A DNA stretch of 64,000 nt from Escherichia coli (GTDB lineage Bacteria > Pseudomonadota > Gammaproteobacteria > Enterobacterales > Enterobacteriaceae): the NCBI RefSeq assembly GCF_003334785.1, contig NZ_QOWV01000013.1; one strand, given 5' to 3'. Below the pieces are notes generated by a model. It made no database searches and was not told the origin of the DNA. It was given only the letters and a program-made list of their open reading frames with translations. The translations under genes were made by a program, and so were the position numbers. Positions 1,046-54,698 of this stretch are shown here, one piece after another. How positions within the stretch are numbered: the first letter of the stretch is position 1; the number at the start of each line of letters is the position of its first letter.

Positions 1046-1132
1046 CAGGCAGGATAAGGCGTTTACGCCGCATCCGGCATTTGAGCAGGATGCCTGATGC
1101 GACGCTGATAGCGTCTTATCAGGCCTACACTC
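1046..1132. repeat. REP/BIME palindromic units downstream of cpxA
   Basis: Imperfect palindromes gccgcatccggca and gcctgatgcgacgc...gtcttatcaggcctac typical of enterobacterial REP. Confidence 0.8.
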
Positions 1133-1961: not shown

Positions 1962-2945
1962 TTATTTCACCGTACCTAAAATTTCGATTTTCGCTGCTCT
2001 GGCTTTGACTTTACGTGACCAGATAGAGGTAAGAATTGGCACCAGAATCGAAGTCACAATGACCGCCGTCGCTACCAGCGAAGTTGCTGCCGGAGCCATC
2101 GGTTTAAACGCAGGCACCATTTCTGCAATCAGCACAGGTGTCGCTACCGCGGCCCCTGCGGAACTGGAAGCGGCAATTCCGGCAGTGCCATCGCCACCGC
2201 CAATCAATTTATCGGCGATAATCAACGGAATACCGGTCACGATAATTACTGCCACACCCAACAGGATCCCCAGCAAACCAGTCTGGGCAATCACAGTCAA
2301 ATCAATGGTATTGCCCAGCGCGAAGGCAAAGAATGGAATCAGCGTTTGCACCGCTTTGCTGAAAAATTCTCGCAATTCAGGGTCAAGGTTCCCCAGGGCA
2401 AAGCCCACCAGGAACGGTAATACTGCGCCGACGAAAACATGCGGTTCAAACGAGGCAATCCCGGCAGTGCCCAGAATAATCATCGTCATGAGCGGCCCGG
2501 ACTCCAACGACATCAACACAAATGCCCCAGCTTCTTCTTTTGTGCCGTACTGCTGCATGATGGAAGCGTAAAGTCCGCCATTGGTCATATCCATCGCCGC
2601 CACCAGCGCCAGCGTTGAAAGTCCGGCAAAGAATCCAACTTCAACACCATGTTCCGGAATAATACGCGAGGCAATTGCCGCAACCACCCACGCGACGGCA
2701 ATTTTAGTTACCACCAGCGTACCGGATTTACGCAGTACCGTTCCCGTCGCGCTTAATTTTATTGACGCCCCCATGCAAAAAAACCACACCGCCAGAATGG
2801 GCACCGTACCGGTAATCATCCCGTTGGTGAATGATCCAAAATATTTCCCCGCCCCCGGCGAGAAGGTGTGGCACAGTGCGCCAAGGAATAGCGGGACGAG
2901 CATCATCCCCCCCGGGATTTTCTCAATCGAGCGTTTTATCTGCAT
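1962..2945 (-). CDS. kdgT: 2-keto-3-deoxygluconate permease
   Basis: Track ORF 1962..2954; highly hydrophobic polytopic protein; start at [13 protein letters not shown] from recalled 327-aa KdgT. Confidence 0.9.
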
Positions 2946-3064
2946 TTCCATCACCTGTCGGCATATTTTTAAGGGCTGATGCGTAATTCCTCAATGGAGC
3001 ATCAGTGTTGATGGAAACGAAGATAGACATTCATTTAATCAATAAAAGTGATCAAAACCACATC

Positions 3065-3084
3065 AATTGAAACGCTGTTTTATT
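3065..3084. promoter_or_regulatory. Candidate KdgR operator in kdgT promoter region
   Basis: aattgaaacgctgttttatt resembles the TGAAA-N-TGTTT KdgR half-site arrangement, ~120 nt upstream of kdgT start. Confidence 0.35.
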
Positions 3085-3120
3085 TTTATCGGATCATTGT
3101 TTTTATTTTGAAATTGATCA

Positions 3121-3157
3121 CAAAAAAACCACCGCCGTTGGCGATGGTTCATTTTTT
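3121..3157 (-). terminator. Intrinsic terminator downstream of sodA (bidirectional shape)
   Basis: GC-rich hairpin accaccgcc-gtt-ggcgatggt flanked by A-run and T-run. Confidence 0.6.
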
Positions 3158-3204
3158 AAGCTGATATGCGGCCTATACGCCTCATTGCAGCAGGCGGCAA
3201 ATGA

Positions 3205-3825
3205 TTATTTTTTCGCCGCAAAACGTGCCGCTGCTTCGTCCCAGTTCACCACGTTCCAGAACTCTTTAATGTAGTCCGGACGGCGGTTCTGGAATTTCAG
3301 GTAGTAAGCATGTTCCCACACATCCAGGCCCATAATCGGGAAGCCGGAAGCGCCAGAAATAGCTTCACCCATCAGCGGAGAATCCTGGTTAGCAGTAGAA
3401 ACCACCGCCAGTTTATCGCCTTTCAGCACCAGCCATGCCCAGCCGGAACCAAAGCGGGAAGCTGCCGCTTTTTCAAATTCTGCTTTGAAGTTATCAACGG
3501 AGCCGAAGTCACGTTCGATAGCCGCTTTCAGGTCACCCTGCAGGGTGGTGCCTTTTTTCAGACCTTTCCAGAACAGGCTGTGGTTAGCGTGACCGCCAGC
3601 GTTGTTGCGCAGTACGGTTTTCTTGTCTGCTGGCAGCTGGTCCAGTTTGGTGATCAGCTCTTCAACCGGCAGGTTGGCAAATTCTGGCAGGCTTTCCAGC
3701 GCCGCGTTGGCGTTGTTTACGTAGGTCTGATGGTGTTTGGTGTGGTGGATTTCCATGGTCTGCTTATCGAAGTGCGGTTCCAGGGCATCGTAAGCATACG
3801 GCAGGGATGGCAGGGTATAGCTCAT
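3205..3825 (-). CDS. sodA: Manganese superoxide dismutase
   Basis: Track ORF 3205..3831; translation [20 protein letters not shown]...; Fe/Mn-SOD motifs ([14 protein letters not shown]). Confidence 0.95.
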
Positions 3826-3896
3826 ATTCATCTCCAGTATTGTCGGGCGGCCGATTGTTAATGCCGCGTAAGCAGTTGGTTCATTATAGTTAATTA

Positions 3897-3922
3897 AATG
3901 ATATTGAAAATGATTATCAATG
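3897..3922. promoter_or_regulatory. Candidate Fur box in sodA promoter
   Basis: aatgatattgaaaatgattatcaatg resembles the GATAATGATAATCATTATC Fur consensus; sits in the sodA-rhaT divergent intergenic region. Confidence 0.4.
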
Positions 3923-4109
3923 CCGTACTTTTCGTAAGGGTATGGTTTTGCAGGAAAATGCCCGAGATGTGAAGCAAATCACCCACTTAATGCCGTGATT
4001 GCCAGTAAATCGACAACGGCGGCAACAGGCGAAAGGTTAATCGACAGCACGATTTTTACACTCATCTCGTCGGAGATGTGACGCGACGAAAAATGATGAG
4101 GATAAGAAG

Positions 4110-6062: not shown

Positions 6063-6899
6063 TTATTGCAGAAAGCCATCCCGTCCCTGGCGAATATCAC
6101 GCGGTGACCAGTTAAACTCTCGGCGAAAAAGCGTCGAAAAGTGGTTACTGTCGCTGAATCCACAGCGATAGGCGATGTCAGTAACGCTGGCCTCGCTGTG
6201 GCGTAGCAGATGTCGGGCTTTCATCAGTCGCAGGCGGTTCAGGTATCGCTGAGGCGTCAGTCCCGTTTGCTGCTTAAGCTGCCGATGTAGCGTACGCAGT
6301 GAAAGAGAAAATTGATCCGCCACGGCATCCCAATTCACCTCATCGGCAAAATGGTCCTCCAGCCAGGCCAGAAGCAAGTTGAGACGTGATGCGCTGTTTT
6401 CCAGGTTCTCCTGCAAACTGCTTTTACACAGCAAGAGCAGTAATTGCATAAACAAGATCTCGCGACTGGCGGTCGAGGGTAAATCATTTTCCCCTTCCTG
6501 CTGTTCCATCTGTGCAACCAGCTGTCGCACCTGCTGCAATACGCTGTGGTTAACGCGCCAGTGAGACGGATACTGCCCATCCAGCTCTTGTGGCAGCAAC
6601 TGATTCAGCCCGGCGAGAAACTGAAATCGATCCGGCGAGCGATACAGCACATTGGTCAGACACAGATTATCGGTATGTTCATACAGATGCCGATCATGAT
6701 CGCGTACGAAACAGACCGTGCCACCGGTGATGGTATAGGGCTGCCCATTAAACACATGAATACCCGTGCCATGTTCGACAATCACAATTTCATGAAAATC
6801 ATGATGATGTTCAGGAAAATCCGCCTGCGGGAGCCGGGGTTCTATCGCCACGGACGCGTTACCAGACGGAAAAAAATCCACACTATGTAATACGGTCAT
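6063..6899 (-). CDS. rhaS: AraC-family activator RhaS
   Basis: 278-aa [26 protein letters not shown]... with C-terminal AraC HTH. Confidence 0.93.
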
Positions 6900-7062
6900 A
6901 CTGGCCTCCTGATGTCGTCAACACGGCGAAATAGTAATCACGAGGTCAGGTTCTTACCTTAAATTTTCGACGGAAAACCACGTAAAAAACGTCGATTTTT
7001 CAAGATACAGCGTGAATTTTCAGGAAATGCGGTGAGCATCACATCACCACAATTCAGCAAAT

Positions 7063-9912
<2,850 letters not shown>

Positions 9913-9915
9913 ACA

Positions 9916-10140
9916 CTGCCGGATGCGGCGCGAGCGCCTTATCCGGCCTACGGGTCGGCAACAGTTGTAGGCCTGATAAGACGCGACAGCGTCGCATCAG
10001 GCATTGATTGCCGGATGCGGCACAAGTGCCTTATCCGGCCTACAGGTCGGCAATAGTTGTAGGCCTGATAAGACGCGACAGCGTCGCATCAGGCATTGAT
10101 TGCCGGATGCGGCGCGAGCGCCTTATCCGGCCTACGGGTC
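9916..10140. repeat. BIME cluster (tandem REP units) between rhaA and rhaD
   Basis: Three near-identical copies of gccggatgcggcgcgagcgccttatccggcctac alternating with gtaggcctgataagacgcgacagcgtcgcatcaggca. Confidence 0.9.
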
Positions 10141-10178
10141 GTGCATCCGACAACACCGAATTTACAGGAACACAGAAC

Positions 10179-11003
10179 ATGCAAAACATTACTCAGTCCT
10201 GGTTTGTCCAGGGAATGATCAAAGCCACCACCGACGCCTGGCTGAAAGGCTGGGATGAGCGCAACGGCGGCAACCTGACGCTACGCCTGGATGACGCCGA
10301 TATCGCACCATATCACGACAATTTCCACCAACAACCGCGCTATATCCCGCTCAGCCAGCCCATGCCTTTACTGGCAAATACACCGTTTATTGTCACCGGC
10401 TCGGGCAAATTCTTCCGTAACGTCCAGCTTGATCCTGCGGCTAACTTAGGCATCGTAAAAGTCGACAGCGACGGCGCGGGCTACCACATTCTTTGGGGGT
10501 TAACCAACGAAGCCGTCCCCACTTCCGAACTTCCGGCTCACTTCCTTTCCCACTGCGAGCGCATTAAAGCCACCAACGGCAAAGATCGGGTGATCATGCA
10601 CTGCCACGCCACCAACCTGATCGCCCTCACCTATGTACTTGAAAACGACACCGCGGTCTTCACTCGCCAACTGTGGGAAGGCAGCACCGAGTGTCTGGTG
10701 GTATTCCCGGATGGCGTTGGCATTTTGCCGTGGATGGTGCCCGGCACGGACGAAATCGGCCAGGCGACCGCACAAGAGATGCAAAAACATTCGCTGGTGT
10801 TGTGGCCCTTCCACGGCGTCTTCGGCAGCGGACCGACGCTGGATGAAACCTTCGGTTTAATCGACACCGCAGAAAAATCAGCACAAGTATTAGTGAAGGT
10901 TTATTCGATGGGCGGCATGAAACAGACCATCAGCCGTGAAGAGTTGATAGCGCTCGGCAAGCGTTTCGGCGTTACGCCACTCGCCAGTGCGCTGGCGCTG
11001 TAA
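10179..11003 (+). CDS. rhaD: Rhamnulose-1-phosphate aldolase
   Basis: Track ORF 10008..11003 runs back into the REP cluster; true start at atgcaaaacatt ([15 protein letters not shown]), 274 aa. Confidence 0.92.
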
Positions 11004-11012
11004 GGAGCAAAC

Positions 11013-11327
11013 ATGATCCGCAAAGCCTTTGTCATGCAGGTAAACCCCGACGCCCACGAAGAGTATCAGCGTCGGCATAATCCCATCTGGCCAGAACTGG
11101 AAGCAGTGCTGAAATCTCACGGTGCGCATAACTACGCCATCTATCTCGACAAAGCGCGTAATCTGCTGTTTGCCATGGTAGAGATTGAATCTGAAGAACG
11201 CTGGAATGCGGTTGCCAGCACTGATGTTTGCCAACGTTGGTGGAAATATATGACCGATGTTATGCCCGCTAACCCGGATAACAGCCCGGTGAGTAGCGAG
11301 CTGCAAGAAGTGTTTTACCTGCCGTAA
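11013..11327 (+). CDS. rhaM: L-rhamnose mutarotase
   Basis: 104-aa ORF immediately after rhaD. Confidence 0.9.
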
Positions 11328-11627
11328 TTGCCCAATGTGCCAGAGATGCCTCCGGCACAATATTTTAAATTTCGATTTGAAAAATTAAACATATTACATC
11401 TCCCGGTAAGTTATATTTCCCTGATACATTGTGAGTAAATCACAAAAATAATGAATAACCCATTAATGATTCATGTGGTTTATTTAAATAACCATTATGT
11501 GCATTACTCCGCAAATCTGACCTTTCACTCTGTCTCAAATTGTCATTGTTTACCGACATATCGCCTCTCATCACTTAATCGCTCCACCATTACAATTGAT
11601 TAAAATATATTTTATGGAGTCCGATTA

Positions 11628-12074
11628 ATGGCAGCTCTTACTGCAAGCTGTATTGACCTGAATATTCAGGGCAATGGCGCTTATTCCGTTCTGAAGCAGT
11701 TGGCGACAATAGCGTTACAAAACGGTTTTATCACCGACTCACACCAGTTCCTGCAAACCCTGCTGCTGCGCGAAAAAATGCACTCTACTGGATTTGGTTC
11801 CGGTGTCGCCGTGCCGCACGGTAAAAGCGCCTGCGTTAAACAACCGTTCGTATTATTCGCCCGCAAAGCGCAGGCTATTGACTGGAAAGCCAGCGATGGC
11901 GAAGACGTCAATTGCTGGATCTGCCTCGGCGTGCCGCAAAGCGGCGAAGAGGATCAGGTCAAAATCATCGGCACACTGTGTCGCAAAATTATTCACAAGG
12001 AATTTATTCATCAACTGCAACAGGGCGATACCGACCAGGTGCTTGCCTTGTTAAATCAAACCCTCAGCTCATAA
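11628..12074 (+). CDS. frvA: PTS fructose-like EIIA component
   Basis: 148-aa ORF; position and size match recalled FrvA. Confidence 0.88.
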   Translation: MAALTASCIDLNIQGNGAYSVLKQLATIALQNGFITDSHQFLQTLLLREKMHSTGFGSGVAVPHGKSACVKQPFVLFARKAQAIDWKASDGEDVNCWICLGVPQSGEEDQVKIIGTLCRKIIHKEFIHQLQQGDTDQVLALLNQTLSS

Positions 12075-40857: not shown

Positions 40858-40933
<76 letters not shown>

Positions 40934-44004: not shown

Positions 44005-44169
44005 TGTTTAATCCTTTTGGTTTAAACCAGATGAAGCATCTTACGCTTACGCCAAAAAAGAAAGCAATTAACGGCGTATGACTTTGCAGATAATTGTGAC
44101 AAAGCTCTCTATTGACGTAACCACAGACTTATAAGGGAGATACTCGCATTGGTGTGCGCTCACGACAGG

Positions 44170-44204
44170 CAAAAAAAAACCTGCCATCGCTGGCAGGTTT
44201 TTTA
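44170..44204 (-). terminator. Intrinsic terminator of typA (bidirectional shape)
   Basis: A-run, cctgcca-tcgc-tggcagg hairpin, T-run, 17 nt after the typA stop. Confidence 0.75.
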
Positions 44205-44220
44205 TGACTAAAAAACGAAA

Positions 44221-46044
44221 TTAATCGTCTTTCGGTGCGCGGTTGGCGCGGCGACGATCGTTTTCCGTCAGGTGACGTTTACGAATACGGATAGAGGTCG
44301 GAGTCACTTCTACCAGTTCGTCATCATCGATGAACTCCAGAGCTTGTTCCAGAGTCATGCGGATAGGCGGAACCAGAACAACGGCTTCGTCAGTACCGGA
44401 AGCACGCATGTTGGTCAGTTTCTTACCGGTCAGGCAGTTTACAGTCAGGTCGTTAGAGCGGCTATGAATACCGATAATCTGACCTTCGTAAACTTCTGCA
44501 CCGTGACCGAGGAACAGCTTACCGCGATCCTGCAGACCGAACAGCGCGAACGCGACCGCTTTACCCTGACCGTTAGAGATCAGTACGCCGTTCTGACGCT
44601 GACCCACTTCACCCGGACGTACGTCGTCGTAGTGGCTGAAGGTGGAGTACAGCAGACCAGTACCGGAAGTCATGGTCATGAACTCAGAACGGAAGCCAAT
44701 CAGACCACGGCTTGGGATCACGTAGTCGAGACGTACGCGGCCTTTACCGTCTGGATTCATGTTTTTCAGGTCGCCTTTACGTTCGCCCAGCGCCTGCATT
44801 ACAGAACCCTGATGCTGTTCTTCAACGTCCAGAGTCACGTTTTCATACGGCTCTTGTTTACGACCGTCGATTTCACGGAAGATAACTTTCGGACGGGATA
44901 CCGCCAGTTCGAAACCTTCACGACGCATGTTTTCGATCAGAACAGACAGGTGCAGTTCGCCACGACCAGAAACGCGGAACGCATCGGCGTCTTCGGTTTC
45001 TTCTACGCGCAGCGCAACGTTGTGTACCAGTTCTTTGTTCAGACGATCCAGGATCTGACGAGACGTTACGAACTTACCTTCTTTACCGCAGAACGGCGAG
45101 GTGTTAACGCAGAAGAACATAGAAACGGTCGGCTCATCAACGGAGAGTGCCGGCAGCGCTTCAACGTTTTGCGTGTCGCAAACGGTGTCAGAAATGTTCA
45201 GTTCGCCAAGGCCCGTGATCGCAACGATATCGCCAGCTTCCGCCAGATCGGTTTCGATACGTTCCAGACCGAGGTGGCCCAGCACTTTACCGACTTTCGC
45301 GTTGCGGGTTTTGCCTTCGCTATCGATGATAGTGACCTGCTGGTTCGGCTTCACTTTACCGCGCTTGATGCGGCCAATGCCGATAACGCCAACATAGCTG
45401 TTGTAATCGAGCTGAGAAATCTGCATCTGGAACGGACCGTCAAGGTCAACGTCCGGCGCAGGAACGTGGTCAACAATCGCCTGGTACAGCGGGGTCATGT
45501 CTTCCGCCATATCTTCGTGGTCCAGACCCGCGATACCGTTCAGCGCAGAAGCGTAAACGATCGGGAAGTCCAGCTGCTCGTCGGTCGCGTCGAGGTTAAC
45601 GAACAGATCGAATACCTGATCCACAACCCAATCAGGACGCGCGCCAGGGCGGTCAACTTTGTTGATAACAACAATCGGCTTCAGGCCGTAAGCAAACGCT
45701 TTTTTGGTTACGAAGCGCGTTTGCGGCATCGGGCCGTCAAATGCGTCAACCACCAGCAGCACTGAGTCTACCATGGACATTACACGTTCAACTTCACCAC
45801 CGAAGTCGGCGTGCCCCGGGGTATCAACGATGTTGATACGGTAATCATTCCATTTGATAGCGGTGTTTTTCGCGAGGATGGTAATCCCACGCTCTTTCTC
45901 CAAATCGTTGGAGTCCATCACGCGCTCTTGGGTTTCGGCACGAGAGTCGAACGTACCGGATTGTTGGAGCAGCTTGTCTACCAGGGTGGTTTTACCATGG
46001 TCTACGTGCGCGATGATGGCGATATTACGCAATTTTTCGATCAC
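44221..46044 (-). CDS. typA: Ribosome-associated translational GTPase TypA/BipA
   Basis: 607-aa [29 protein letters not shown]; G-domain motifs ([21 protein letters not shown]). Confidence 0.95.
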
Positions 46045-46195
46045 AACTTTGCCTCAGGCATTAGAAATAGCGCGTTATTGTACACGGATTAATCGCACTA
46101 CAAAACAGGATCACAAACATCCTCCGCAAACAAGTATTGCAGAGTCCCTTTGTGATCGCTTTCACGGAGCATAAAAAGGGTTATCCAAAGGTCAT

Positions 46196-46287
46196 TGCAC
46201 CAACATGGTGCTTAATGTTTCCATTGAAGCACTATATTGGTGCAACATTCACATCGTGGTGCAGCCCTTTTGCACGATGGTGCGCAT
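46196..46287. promoter_or_regulatory. NtrC binding sites upstream of glnAp2
   Basis: Repeated TGCACCA-N-TGGTGC dyads: tgcaccaacatggtgct, gcactatattggtgcaa, tggtgcagcccttttgcacgatggtgcgca. Confidence 0.8.
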
Positions 46288-47895: not shown

Positions 47896-47957
47896 GCCGG
47901 ATGCGACGCAAATGCGTCTTATCCGGCCTACACGGTGATGATGTGGTAGGCCGGAGC
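47896..47957. repeat. REP element downstream of glnA
   Basis: gccggatgcgacgcaaatgcgtcttatccggcctac plus partial unit gtaggccggagc. Confidence 0.8.
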
Positions 47958-50817: not shown

Positions 50818-50922
50818 TGCCGGATGCGGAGAAAGTCGTAGGCCTGATAAGACGCGACCAGCGCCGCATCAGGCATCATGCTCAGATGCCTGATGCGGCG
50901 TAAACGCCTTATCCGGCCTACA
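50818..50922. repeat. REP/BIME elements between yshB and hemN
   Basis: gccggatgcgg...gtaggcctgataagacgcgaccagcgccgcatcaggca...gcctgatgcggcgtaaacgccttatccggcctac. Confidence 0.85.
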
Positions 50923-53104: not shown

Positions 53105-53170
53105 AATGGTTCGTCTTTTAGCCGTTTTATTCAGTATAGATTTGCGGCGGAATCTAACAGAAAGCAAGCA

Positions 53171-53415
53171 AAGAAAAAAGGCGACAGATTACTCTGTCGC
53201 CTTTTTTCCTGACTCATAACCCTTAACGGGTCTTACAATCCTTGCAGGCCGCCAACACACCCTGTTTTTCCTTTAGCCGGAACAATCCGTGTTGATTCCA
53301 TTTCCGTTTAATTACGTCTCCGGACGTTTGTCTTCCTGACAATCCTCTGTCTTCGCCTCCTGGCGCTCCTGACCCTCATCCTGAGTCATTGTTCCTGTTA
53401 GCGTCCTCGCTCTAT
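53171..53415 (-). ncRNA. csrC: CsrA-sequestering small RNA CsrC
   Basis: Minus strand matches recalled CsrC (atagagcgaggacgctaacaggaacaatgactcaggatgagggtcaggagcgccaggagg...), many GGA motifs, ends in hairpin ggcgacagagtaatctgtcgcc plus T-run. Confidence 0.85.
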
Positions 53416-54329: not shown

Positions 54330-54425
54330 TAATGCTTGTGCCGGATGTGGCGTATCCGGCCCGTAAATTCAATAGATTACAATTCTACCGTTGGCCTGAT
54401 AAACATAGCGCATCAGGCATTACGG
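54330..54425. repeat. REP-like palindromic units between engB and spf
   Basis: gccggatgtggcgtatccggc and gcctgataaacatagcgcatcaggca. Confidence 0.7.
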
Positions 54426-54443: not shown

Positions 54444-54552
54444 TAAAAAACGCCCCAGTCATTACTGACTGGGGCGGCTAAAATATTCAGCCAAATCCGA
54501 TTACGTGAAGTAAAAGGTCTGAAAGATAGAACATCTTACCTCTGTACCCTAC
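54444..54552 (-). ncRNA. spf: Spot 42 small RNA
   Basis: Minus strand matches recalled Spot 42 (gtagggtacagaggtaagatgttctatctttcagacc...cccagtcagtaatgactggggcgttttttattg), ending in intrinsic terminator. Confidence 0.9.
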
Positions 54553-54698
54553 GCGACTAACTTTACTCTTTTTTGTTCAGTTCAGAAAGCACTTTTTGTA
54601 ATTTTTTTTCAGTTGTTGCATAGGAATTTCTAATAGCCATCACAAAACGTGACAGCTTATGTTGCTTACTTACGAAAAAAGGCATGTTCAGGCGAATC

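Follow-up and report, generated by a model that had tools for sequence, protein, structure and literature searches.

A BIME-2 array between rhaA and rhaD

The spacer between rhaA and rhaD in the rhaBADM operon of Escherichia coli holds a textbook BIME-2 with five REP units. The reading that we favour, with a probability of roughly 60%, is that this BIME-2 occupies a permissive site, that its copy number is labile, that the operon is read through it, and that the generic effects of REPs are modest here. REP and BIME sequences were first described in the 1980s; the rha array is an element of this already known kind, in the bacterial genome that has been studied best. In the window (the whole stretch of 64 kb that was analysed), an earlier note had placed a BIME/REP cluster of about 225 nt at 9916-10140 within rhaBAD(M), which is borne out by repeat finding, consensus typing and annotation.

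BIME-2 elements are defined by a tandem succession of Y and Z2 REPs that alternate in orientation and are joined by short linkers, by an extragenic location and by a strain-variable copy number (PMC3333891). At rha we found Y and Z2 (not Z1) REPs, inverted alternation, short linkers, tandem units and a copy number that varies among strains. The array is extragenic, lying entirely between the stop codon of rhaA (9910-9912) and the rhaD ATG (10179), and makes up most of this 266-nt spacer. Its five REP hairpins at 9917-10135 are ordered Y(+), Z2(-), Y(+), Z2(-), Y(+). Tandem Repeats Finder reported a single array at 9917-10141 (period 92, 2.4 copies, 93% matches, score 415), and a repeat search of the window returned three 92-nt copies in register within it; the units show 5 differences in 92 nt. 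A chance match to the 36-nt REP pattern was ruled out, the expected number of matches being 0 in 100 shuffles of the window. Compared with the published consensuses (that of Y as quoted in PMC11208160), REP1, REP3 and REP5 are identical to Y at 31-32 of 35 positions, and REP2 and REP4 to Z2 at 35 of 37; each REP scores higher against the consensus of its own type than against those of other types.

REP1 (9917-9951, plus strand, TGCCGGATGCGGCGCGAGCGCCTTATCCGGCCTAC) is of type Y, with 32 of 35 consensus positions and a hairpin of -21.3 kcal/mol. Between its CTAC/GTAG end and that of REP2 lies a 14-nt linker (9952-9965, GGGTCGGCAACAGT). REP2 (9966-10002, minus strand, reading GCCTGATGCGACGCTGTCGCGTCTTATCAGGCCTACA on that strand) is of type Z2, agrees with this consensus at 35 of 37 positions, matches the REP pattern exactly and folds at -21.9 kcal/mol; it carries a natural IS621 target, ATCAGGCCTAC. 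The next linker is the 6-nt ATTGAT (10003-10008), contained in an end-to-end match of the Rfam naRNA4 model at 9970-10040. REP3 (10009-10043, plus strand; 31 of 35, -20.0 kcal/mol) is a Y variant that differs from REP1 at the positions corresponding to 9930, 9932 and 9935 of the latter. Its loop-proximal stem reads GCAC...GTGC instead of GCGC...GCGC, a compensatory change from G-C to A-U. A second 14-nt linker (10044-10057, AGGTCGGCAATAGT) leads to REP4 (10058-10094, minus strand), which is identical to REP2 and provides a second IS621 target site. After another ATTGAT (10095-10100), the array is completed by REP5 (10101-10135, plus strand), a Y unit identical to REP1. The linkers were typed by length and sequence. 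In total, the window contains 15 REP-like units at 8 sites, and a query carrying the array had a median of 9 matching places per E. coli genome.

Gene order and the start of rhaD

The gene calls were confirmed by RefSeq, in which E. coli strain H2, 100% identical here, is annotated. The first gene of the operon, rhaB (rhamnulokinase, 7187-8656, plus strand as all four genes; ORF list and RefSeq of strain H2), overlaps by 4 nt with rhaA (L-rhamnose isomerase, 8653-9912), whose TAA is followed by the 5 nt ACACT and then by the first REP stem. Downstream of the array are rhaD (rhamnulose-1-phosphate aldolase, 10179-11003) and, 9 nt 3' of it, the last gene rhaM (L-rhamnose mutarotase, 11013-11327). 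A mechanical ORF call extends rhaD upstream to a TTG (10008-11003, 331 aa), with the start placed in REP3. Since RhaD is annotated as a protein of 274 aa beginning at the ATG at 10179, this N-terminal extension (10008-10178, plus strand) is spurious, as the earlier note had maintained; RhaD homologues agree, all aligning from residue 1 at this ATG. For annotation purposes, the ORF start at 10008 should thus not be taken for the start of rhaD.

Copy number and sequence of the spacer vary within and beyond E. coli

In E. coli the rhaA-rhaD spacer contains 1, 3, 5, 7 or 9 REPs and measures 82-460 nt, with lengths of 82/92, 174, 266/276, 358 and 448-460 nt corresponding to these five numbers. When 59 of 5,363 E. 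coli genomes were sampled systematically, one REP was found in 15 genomes, three in 11, five in 9, seven in 2 and nine in 13, counts that may be blurred by a possible collapse of the array in some short-read assemblies. The remaining allele (241 nt, 9 of the 59) combines one REP with a different repeat. K-12 (MG1655) and LF82 both have nine REPs, the window five. In 14 genomes of the sample the flanks (600 nt) were 100% identical, and the REP count still ranged from 1 to 9. If the array were tuned to fix a stoichiometry, a copy number of 1-9 in strains with identical flanks would hardly be expected, and the exact number of REPs at rha is not conserved as such. What is kept is at least one Y REP, present in all 59 sampled genomes and always 5 nt 3' of the rhaA stop codon. 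One hairpin could therefore be under selection and be more than a mere passenger.

Among the at least 120 loci of the cross-genus comparison, ten genera outside the Enterobacteriaceae proper have a gap of 4-24 nt between rhaA and rhaD that lacks any hairpin, and in two Enterobacter genomes the gap is empty as well, at 35-43 nt (the closest outgroups, such as Salmonella, Klebsiella, Shigella and other Escherichia species, were not among the matches listed). In other Enterobacteriaceae the gap is filled by genus-specific palindromic repeats that differ from those of E. coli, for example a 466-nt array in Superficieibacter, and the inserted hairpin begins 3-8 nt 3' of the rhaA stop.

These findings bear on the view that the array is a mere passenger, a repeat, selfish or neutral, that alters neither rha expression nor fitness to a measurable degree. 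It would be tolerated since the rhaA-rhaD junction offers one of the rare positions in the operon at which inserted DNA does no damage. The short, hairpin-free ancestral gap, its occupation by different repeat families in different genera and the span from one to nine REPs behind identical flanks all favour such a view, as does one natural isolate that tolerates an insertion of IS621 in a Z2 REP of the spacer. Yet the Y REP retained 5 nt from the stop codon in every sampled E. coli genome argues against it, and five stable mRNA hairpins would, by analogy to other REPs, very likely slow PNPase and RNase II at least a little. A complete lack of effect is thus possible, if somewhat unlikely, in our judgement.

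The allele distribution is also relevant to a role of the array mainly at the level of DNA, either as a site of binding and cleavage by DNA gyrase or as a topological insulator absorbing positive supercoils from the rha promoter, whose induction is very strong. BIME-2 elements are reported as gyrase targets in vivo and as barriers to transcription-induced supercoiling, with most BIME-2 sites at borders between supercoiling regions; for binding and cleavage by gyrase in vivo, the literature cites Espeli and Boccard (1997). A lone Y REP does not make a BIME-2, however, and strains that have just this are as common as strains with an array; we regard a DNA-level role as very unlikely.

RNA structure of the spacer

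The folding energy of a 286-nt RNA with the whole spacer was -142.6 kcal/mol, compared to -102.9 +/- 5.2 for shuffled sequences (z = -7.6). Individual REP hairpins contribute -20 to -22 kcal/mol each and a paired Y:Z2 unit -55 kcal/mol. The array is followed by a rhaD leader of 43 nt (10136-10178, plus strand) with an AGGA Shine-Dalgarno sequence 9 nt 5' of the ATG. This leader is unstructured (-5.7 kcal/mol, z = +1.0) and contains more C than G (GC skew -0.25); related genera share the sequence towards its 3' end (aatt[t/a]acaggaac...). An intrinsic (Rho-independent) terminator was considered and rejected: no site was found in 6800-11800 or in the LF82 locus, nor any REP followed by a T run.

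The position of the first hairpin raises the question of whether REP1 acts as a brake on translation, stalling terminating ribosomes so that the mRNA would be cleaved and RhaA tagged via tmRNA, with a lowered RhaA output. According to Liang, Rudd and Deutscher (2015), as represented in PMC12306157, translation is down-regulated by REPs that follow a stop codon at 15 nt or less. In every E. coli allele the distance from the TAA across ACACT to the stem is 5 nt and falls within this limit, and the hairpins of other genera start 3-8 nt from the stop. This proximity may nevertheless be a matter of geometry: with a very short ancestral spacer and retention of the segment in which ribosomes bind to initiate rhaD, any insertion falls beside the rhaA stop. 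By analogy to these other REPs such a brake may exist, but we rate it as rather unlikely. It would be compatible with the other explanations discussed here.

Matches to the naRNA4 model

Rfam model RF02564 (naRNA4) represents one Y-linker-Z2 unit of REP325. It matched both rha Z2-Y units from end to end (model positions 1-77 of 77) on the minus strand, with 77.0 bits at 10062-10132 and 76.6 bits at 9970-10040, at a gathering score of 59.5. The array might hence be seen as a source of naRNA4-like RNAs that act in trans, bind HU and organise the nucleoid, as originally claimed for REP325 (PMC4550694). The above-threshold matches are antisense to the rha operon, however; the strand that is transcribed with the operon scores 56.5 and 53.2 bits, below the threshold, and a scan of 6800-11800 found no promoter-like site for minus-strand transcription through the array. 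In addition, a 2026 preprint, with the senior author of the 2015 naRNA4 paper among its authors, reports no nucleoid compaction by REP325/naRNA4. The model also matches every other BIME-2 unit in the window, so that a match identifies the repeat and says nothing on function. We therefore consider a trans-acting RNA from this array extremely unlikely, and the naRNA4 matches at rha should be annotated as marking the repeat unit, not a demonstrated small RNA. Two further Rfam matches, Termite-flg and mir-1992, were weak (E = 0.42) and were dismissed as chance.

Expression across the array

The general mechanism invoked in the earlier note, in which REPs protect the mRNA on their upstream side or dampen expression of what lies downstream, is real and has been shown directly for REP325. 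This array in yjdMN stabilises the upstream mRNA, while the downstream yjdN is attenuated about 8-10-fold; the RNA ratio of yjdM to yjdN is 35 with the array and 1 after its deletion. If the rha array acted in the same manner, as a partial terminator and upstream stabiliser, RhaB and RhaA would markedly exceed RhaD and RhaM. In favour of such a strong regulator, the architecture is alike, with a Y/Z2 array between two co-transcribed genes, and the attenuation by REP325 is partly Rho-dependent. The rhaD leader, unstructured and with more C than G, also occupies the position after REP hairpins where Dar and Sorek place rut sites.

Published expression data point in another direction. In PHL628, an MG1655 derivative assumed from its pedigree to have the nine-REP allele, the log2 induction of rhaB/rhaA/rhaD by rhamnose was 11.6/11.0/10.2, 10.2/10.4/9.2 and 9.1/8.4/8.4 in published RNA-seq. 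The value of rhaD lay within 0.06-1.35 of those of rhaA and rhaB (0.06 in one condition), so that any polarity is modest, at most about 2.5-fold. In LF82, also with nine REPs, rhaD RPKM equalled or exceeded those of rhaA and rhaB in both conditions of the published table. Such gene-level tables, being in fold changes or RPKM, do not report stoichiometry in absolute terms, and they refer to strains with nine REPs, not to the five-REP allele of the window. Fold-change comparison is further complicated by the basal rhaD RNA, which was about 5-fold above that of rhaB in two datasets from nine-REP strains. An internal promoter was considered as an origin of this abundant basal RNA; a crude scan, sensitive to consensus-like promoters only, found no sigma-70-like promoter in the spacer of either the window or LF82.

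A marked upstream bias of RNA across the array, as seen with REP325, is thus absent from the published tables of nine-REP strains, and a strong block of downstream expression by the rha array is not seen in published data. Neither the small difference in induction (at most 1.35 log2) in the K-12 derivative nor the rhaD RPKM of LF82, not below that of rhaA or rhaB, fits a strong regulator. The same is true of the REP count of 1 to 9 in near-identical strains, and of REP325 constructs with 2-4 hairpins, which were Rho-independent, only the full array of 12 hairpins being Rho-dependent; the window has five. Loss of RhaD activity leads to a build-up of rhamnulose-1-phosphate, which is harmful, and this also counts against strong attenuation of rhaD. 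Taken together, we hold a REP325-like strong regulator to be clearly unlikely.

A modest effect on the downstream genes, up to about 2.5-fold, is possible. The proposal that the REPs set the stoichiometry of RhaB/RhaA versus RhaD/RhaM thus finds partial support at best: a modest version is possible, and the strong version agrees poorly with the near-uniform induction and with the variation from one to nine REPs. Uniform transcript coverage had been named in the earlier note as an outcome speaking against its proposal, and the near-uniform induction of rhaB, rhaA and rhaD comes close to it. For a repeat without any effect, the almost uniform induction is an argument in favour, and the slightly but consistently lower fold changes of rhaD relative to rhaB in PHL628 are one against. 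A full-text literature search for REPs in connection with rhaD gave nothing relevant, and the RepRanger supplements have no entry for rha loci. Among the entries listed in the Rho-binding/REP table of the 2026 preprint, rhaA-rhaD does not occur, which is not evidence of absence.

Proposed course of events at the rha array

According to our preferred reading, of a labile BIME-2 at a permissive site, the insertion site would be the junction of two compact halves of the operon, rhaB-rhaA with their 4-nt overlap and rhaD-rhaM spaced by 9 nt. REP-type repeats would insert at this junction and then grow or shrink by 92-nt steps (Y plus Z2), probably as units recombine or slip against each other, a REP-associated transposase possibly taking part. 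Transcription from the rhaBAD promoter would include the array in the operon mRNA, RNA polymerase mostly reading through. In the mRNA, five hairpins would, by analogy to other REPs, block 3'-to-5' exonucleases and give rise to stable decay intermediates ending after rhaBA; some transcripts might also be lost ahead of rhaD, a minor effect of about 2.5-fold at most. As the first hairpin lies only 5 nt 3' of the rhaA stop, termination of RhaA translation may be slowed. Such generic REP effects are summarised in PMC12306157 and PMC6061677.

A more speculative extension, which we consider rather doubtful, is that the number of REPs (1 to 9) serves as a fast-mutating heritable dial of the balance between RhaB/RhaA and RhaD/RhaM. 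It could work via decay barriers, via weak attenuation, or via a REP hairpin with which a rhaDM fragment would begin after processing, and the roughly 5-fold basal excess of rhaD over rhaB in two nine-REP strains might be part of it. If so, lineages would differ measurably in rhamnose flux or in tolerance to rhamnulose-1-phosphate. The natural alleles with 1, 3, 5, 7 and 9 REPs in near-identical backgrounds, combined with a cheap and strong inducer, make the locus a well-suited test bed. It could show how the number of hairpins affects read-through, decay and translation termination, an effect that the work on REP325 left as "context-dependent".

Comparison with known REP systems

The rha array shows no substantive difference from canonical BIME-2 elements. 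It begins and ends with a Y unit, and for this reason comprises 2.4 units instead of whole pairs.

The intercistronic REPs of malE-malF and hisJ-hisQ, known as upstream stabilisers (Higgins 1982 and Newbury 1987, as cited in later papers), resemble those at rha in that hairpins within a polycistronic operon directly follow the upstream stop codon, and by analogy a similar block of 3'-to-5' exonucleases is expected at rha. In these two systems the upstream product is needed in large excess, whereas such a need for RhaA over RhaD is not known. With the stop-proximal REPs of Liang (2015; as conveyed by PMC12306157) the rha array shares a first stem 5 nt after the TAA of rhaA, which makes an effect on rhaA putative; at rha this proximity can, however, be explained by the short ancestral spacer.

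REP325 (the naRNA1-6 array of yjdM-yjdN), of all sibling arrays the one studied best, likewise consists of Y-linker-Z2 units in an intercistronic position between co-transcribed genes. It has 12 hairpins, compared to five in the window and nine in K-12, and the naRNA4-sense strand is antisense to the operon at rha, unlike at REP325. Finally, the gene downstream of REP325 is attenuated about 10-fold; at rha, the induction of rhaD stays within 0.06-1.35 log2 of that of rhaA and rhaB.

Layout of the REP array between rhaA and rhaD

The 1.1 kb surrounding the array is 100% identical to E. coli strain H2 and is matched in all 5,426 complete E. coli genomes of the collection. According to the RefSeq annotation of an identical genome, rhaB (7187-8656) and rhaA (8653-9912) overlap by 4 nt, and rhaD (10179-11003) and rhaM (11013-11327) are spaced by 9 nt, all on the plus strand. 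The rhaA-rhaD spacer comprises 266 nt: it opens with TAA (9910-9912) and ACACT, followed by three Y REPs on the plus strand (REP1, 9917-9951; REP3, 10009-10043; REP5, 10101-10135) alternating with two Z2 REPs on the minus strand (REP2, 9966-10002; REP4, 10058-10094), with linkers of 14 nt and 6 nt. REP5 is followed by an unstructured 43-nt leader with the rhaD Shine-Dalgarno sequence. Tandem Repeats Finder reports an array at 9917-10141 (period 92, 2.4 copies, score 415), almost exactly where an earlier note had placed a REP cluster (9916-10140).

The array is far beyond chance. Zero matches to the REP pattern are expected in the shuffled window, and the predicted RNA fold of the spacer lies 7.6 standard deviations below shuffled controls. 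Single REPs fold with -20 to -22 kcal/mol each, and in an alternative fold a neighbouring Y:Z2 pair forms one long hairpin of -55 kcal/mol. Two Y variants differ in the upper stem by a compensatory exchange of a G-C for an A-U pair.

A mechanically called ORF (10008-11003) starts at a TTG within REP3. This N-terminal extension of rhaD is spurious, being contradicted both by the annotated start at 10179, which yields a RhaD of 274 aa, and by the homologues, all of which align starting at that ATG. Since the palindromic repeat is stop-free, a 92-aa minus-strand ORF extending out of the BIME into the 3' end of rhaA (9719-9997) is likewise an artefact. The earlier observation is thus confirmed in every detail, i.e. 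array, gene context and ORF artefact.

Classification and other elements of the window

The odd-numbered REPs best match the Y consensus (31-32/35) and the even-numbered ones the Z2 consensus (35/37), both as quoted in PMC11208160. BIME-2 elements are defined as tandem Y and Z2 units of alternating orientation with short linkers (PMC3333891). As judged from sequence, the rha array is a BIME-2, with every sequence-level defining feature of REP and BIME-2 present. The Rfam model RF02564 (naRNA4; gathering score 59.5) derives from a single Y-linker-Z2 unit of REP325, the 12-hairpin BIME-2 inside yjdMN and closest studied relative of the rha array. It matches both Z2-Y units of the rha array end to end, with 77.0 and 76.6 bits. 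Together with the consensus matches and the alternating tandem layout, this bears out the earlier identification as a REP/BIME cluster. Relative to the operon, the above-threshold matches are antisense (minus strand); the transcribed strand scores 56.5 and 53.2 bits. A promoter scan revealed no promoter-like site to drive minus-strand transcription through the array. RF02564 also matches the other BIME-2 units of the window, each a single Y and Z2 pair, above the gathering threshold (1048-1125, plus strand, 78.6 bits; 50841-50918, minus strand, 75.2 bits), and therefore detects BIME-2 units in general.

Altogether, the 64-kb window holds 15 REP-like units at 8 sites, the rha array being the largest. 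Single REPs were seen at 40858-40887, 47896-47927, 54394-54418 and 63556-63587. At 24334-24431, a short Z1-like REP (GCCTGATGCGCTGCGCTTATCAGGC) has an inverted Y REP 43 nt away, and the two look like a BIME-1-type pair. Further Rfam matches above gathering score are CsrC (53162-53415), Spot 42 (54444-54562), ES222 (46126-46233), STnc370 (44168-44236) and, at the window end, a 5S rRNA gene (63817-63932), all on the minus strand, as well as a plus-strand SECIS element in the formate dehydrogenase region (19211-19269). All of these are to be expected in this region of the E. coli chromosome.

Spacer alleles within E. coli

A query restricted to the 300-nt flanks of the spacer matched 5,363 genomes, 60 of which were sampled in even steps along the ranking, giving 59 intact loci; representative alleles were fetched and parsed for REP content. 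Spacers of 82/92 nt contain one REP (15 of the 59 genomes), those of 174-184 nt three (11 genomes), of 266/276 nt five (nine genomes), of 358 nt seven (two genomes) and of 448-460 nt nine (13 genomes). K-12 MG1655 has a 450-nt spacer with nine REPs, and the window allele equals the K-12 allele less two internal 92-nt units. ACACT and the Y REP directly 3' of the rhaA stop are kept in every allele. Fourteen sampled genomes whose 600-nt flanks are 100% identical to those of the window carry one, five, seven or nine REPs; REP number thus evolves at a faster pace than point substitutions build up. Copy-number variation at a given BIME-2 locus has been described before (PMC3333891).

The remaining nine genomes (~15%) have a 241-nt spacer with one Y REP and an unrelated, GC-rich palindromic element of ~156 nt. 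In NZ_CP081724.1 (345-500 of the fetched locus), this nested palindrome ('ccctcacccc...ccctctccc...gggagagggttagggtgagggg') lies 3' of the Y REP, at a position equivalent to 9952-10135 of the window. The element is a repeat dispersed at low copy number (a median of 2 sites per genome; 944 genomes contain at least 80% of its length) and may be boxC-like.

In the sixtieth genome, NZ_AP021933.1, a Z2 REP of the array is interrupted by IS621 (2446-4000 of the fetched locus), a bridge-RNA-guided element of the IS110 family, which splits the rha operon by ~1.3 kb. The insertion site is the published natural target of the element, ATCAGGCCTAC (PMC11208160), which is present in both Z2 REPs of the window (9966-10002 and 10058-10094). 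In the same genome, which is that of a natural isolate, rhaM and frvA are separated by a gene for a carbohydrate porin.

The junction in other genera

Searching with a degenerate DNA pattern that encodes a conserved peptide of RhaD gave at least 120 loci, and rhaA and rhaD were located in 27 of them; the matches listed include no Salmonella, Klebsiella or other Escherichia species. Among these matches, a gap of 4-24 nt without a hairpin was found in Yersinia, two Serratia, two Pectobacterium, Brenneria, Erwinia, Pantoea, Budvicia, Hafnia, Acerihabitans and Cricetibacter (Pasteurellaceae), and an empty gap of 35-43 nt in two Enterobacter genomes. The gap holds one Y-like REP in Citrobacter sp. 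FP75 and two REPs in Pseudescherichia vulneris. Superficieibacter electus has a 466-nt spacer (~3256-3721 of the fetched locus), in which a Y-like REP is followed by about ten hairpin repeats in tandem that belong to another REP type (gcccggtaagcgcagcgccaccgggc); this constitutes an independent BIME-like array at the position orthologous to that in E. coli. Palindromes of the form 'ccctctccc...gggagaggg' occupy the gap in Enterobacter cloacae, Pseudocitrobacter, Kluyvera and isolate RIT691; those of E. cloacae and Kluyvera are related to the ~156-nt element of the E. coli 241-nt allele, which the Pseudocitrobacter faecalis element also resembles. In nearly all filled gaps the first hairpin begins 3-8 nt past the stop codon of rhaA, with 18 nt in Enterobacter sp. 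Bisph1 as an exception, and the leader at the 3' end, aatt[a/t]acaggaac..., is retained. On these sequence comparisons, the simplest reading is that the junction, with a tightly packed gene pair on either side, is permissive and would have been colonised independently by several repeat families; the closeness of the hairpin to the stop would then follow from geometry.

Expression across the array and comparison with REP325

REPs are reported in the literature to be a barrier to 3'-to-5' exonucleases, stabilising upstream mRNA, to cause partial termination, in some cases Rho-dependent, and, at no more than 15 nt from a stop, to lower translation of the upstream gene; BIME-2 elements additionally bind gyrase and act in topological insulation. 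In PHL628, an MG1655 derivative for which nine REPs are assumed, planktonic log2 fold changes on rhamnose for rhaB, rhaA and rhaD were 11.59, 10.96 and 10.24 in minimal medium at 28 °C, 10.17, 10.44 and 9.18 in rich medium at 28 °C, and 9.07, 8.41 and 8.36 in rich medium at 37 °C (PMC11434101, Table S5). Driven by the rhaBAD promoter through the array, rhaD induction thus amounts to 300- to 1,200-fold, 0.06-1.35 log2 units off the upstream genes. For the AIEC strain LF82, whose 460-nt spacer was checked to contain nine REPs, RPKM values in two conditions were 452/65 for rhaB, 376/39 for rhaA and 554/303 for rhaD (PMC6379400). Scanning found no intrinsic terminator in the spacer of the window or of LF82. 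The rha expression data found argue for a small effect of the array. The near-equal induction, the LF82 values, the lack of an intrinsic terminator and the polymorphism from one to nine REPs fit with RNA polymerase mostly reading through, with a polarity of at most ~2.5-fold. By analogy, the array would probably still be an exonuclease barrier, and possibly a brake on translation termination of RhaA.

Basal rhaD RNA exceeds that of rhaB ~5-fold in LF82 (PMC6379400), and also ~5-fold per kb in MG1655 in LB (baseMean 80.7 vs 25.3). The excess in these two independent datasets suggests either that some rhaD RNA comes from elsewhere than the rhaBAD promoter or that the rhaDM part is more stable. 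A weak internal promoter is one possible cause, but the spacer yielded no sigma-70-like promoter; other possibilities are reads of antisense RNA in unstranded libraries and an rhaDM fragment of greater stability that starts with a REP hairpin.

According to a 2026 preprint, REP325 has no compacting effect on the nucleoid; with the array present, yjdM mRNA is higher and yjdN mRNA ~8-10-fold lower, the yjdM/yjdN ratio being 35 in the wild type vs 1 after deletion, and a ladder of hairpin-ended RNAs arises from it. Its Rho dependence is partial and confined to the full array, constructs of 2-4 hairpins being insensitive to bicyclomycin. By this analogy, the stabiliser/attenuator mechanism through which, according to the earlier note, the array may set rhaB/rhaA versus rhaD/rhaM stoichiometry is reasonable; the strong upstream bias of the REP325 type, however, is not seen in published rha data, and the proposal that stoichiometry in the operon is determined by the array has only partial support. 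The rha element belongs to an already known class and its locus is well known; its copy-number series and the repeated colonisation of the junction across genera give useful context but exemplify phenomena already described for BIMEs.
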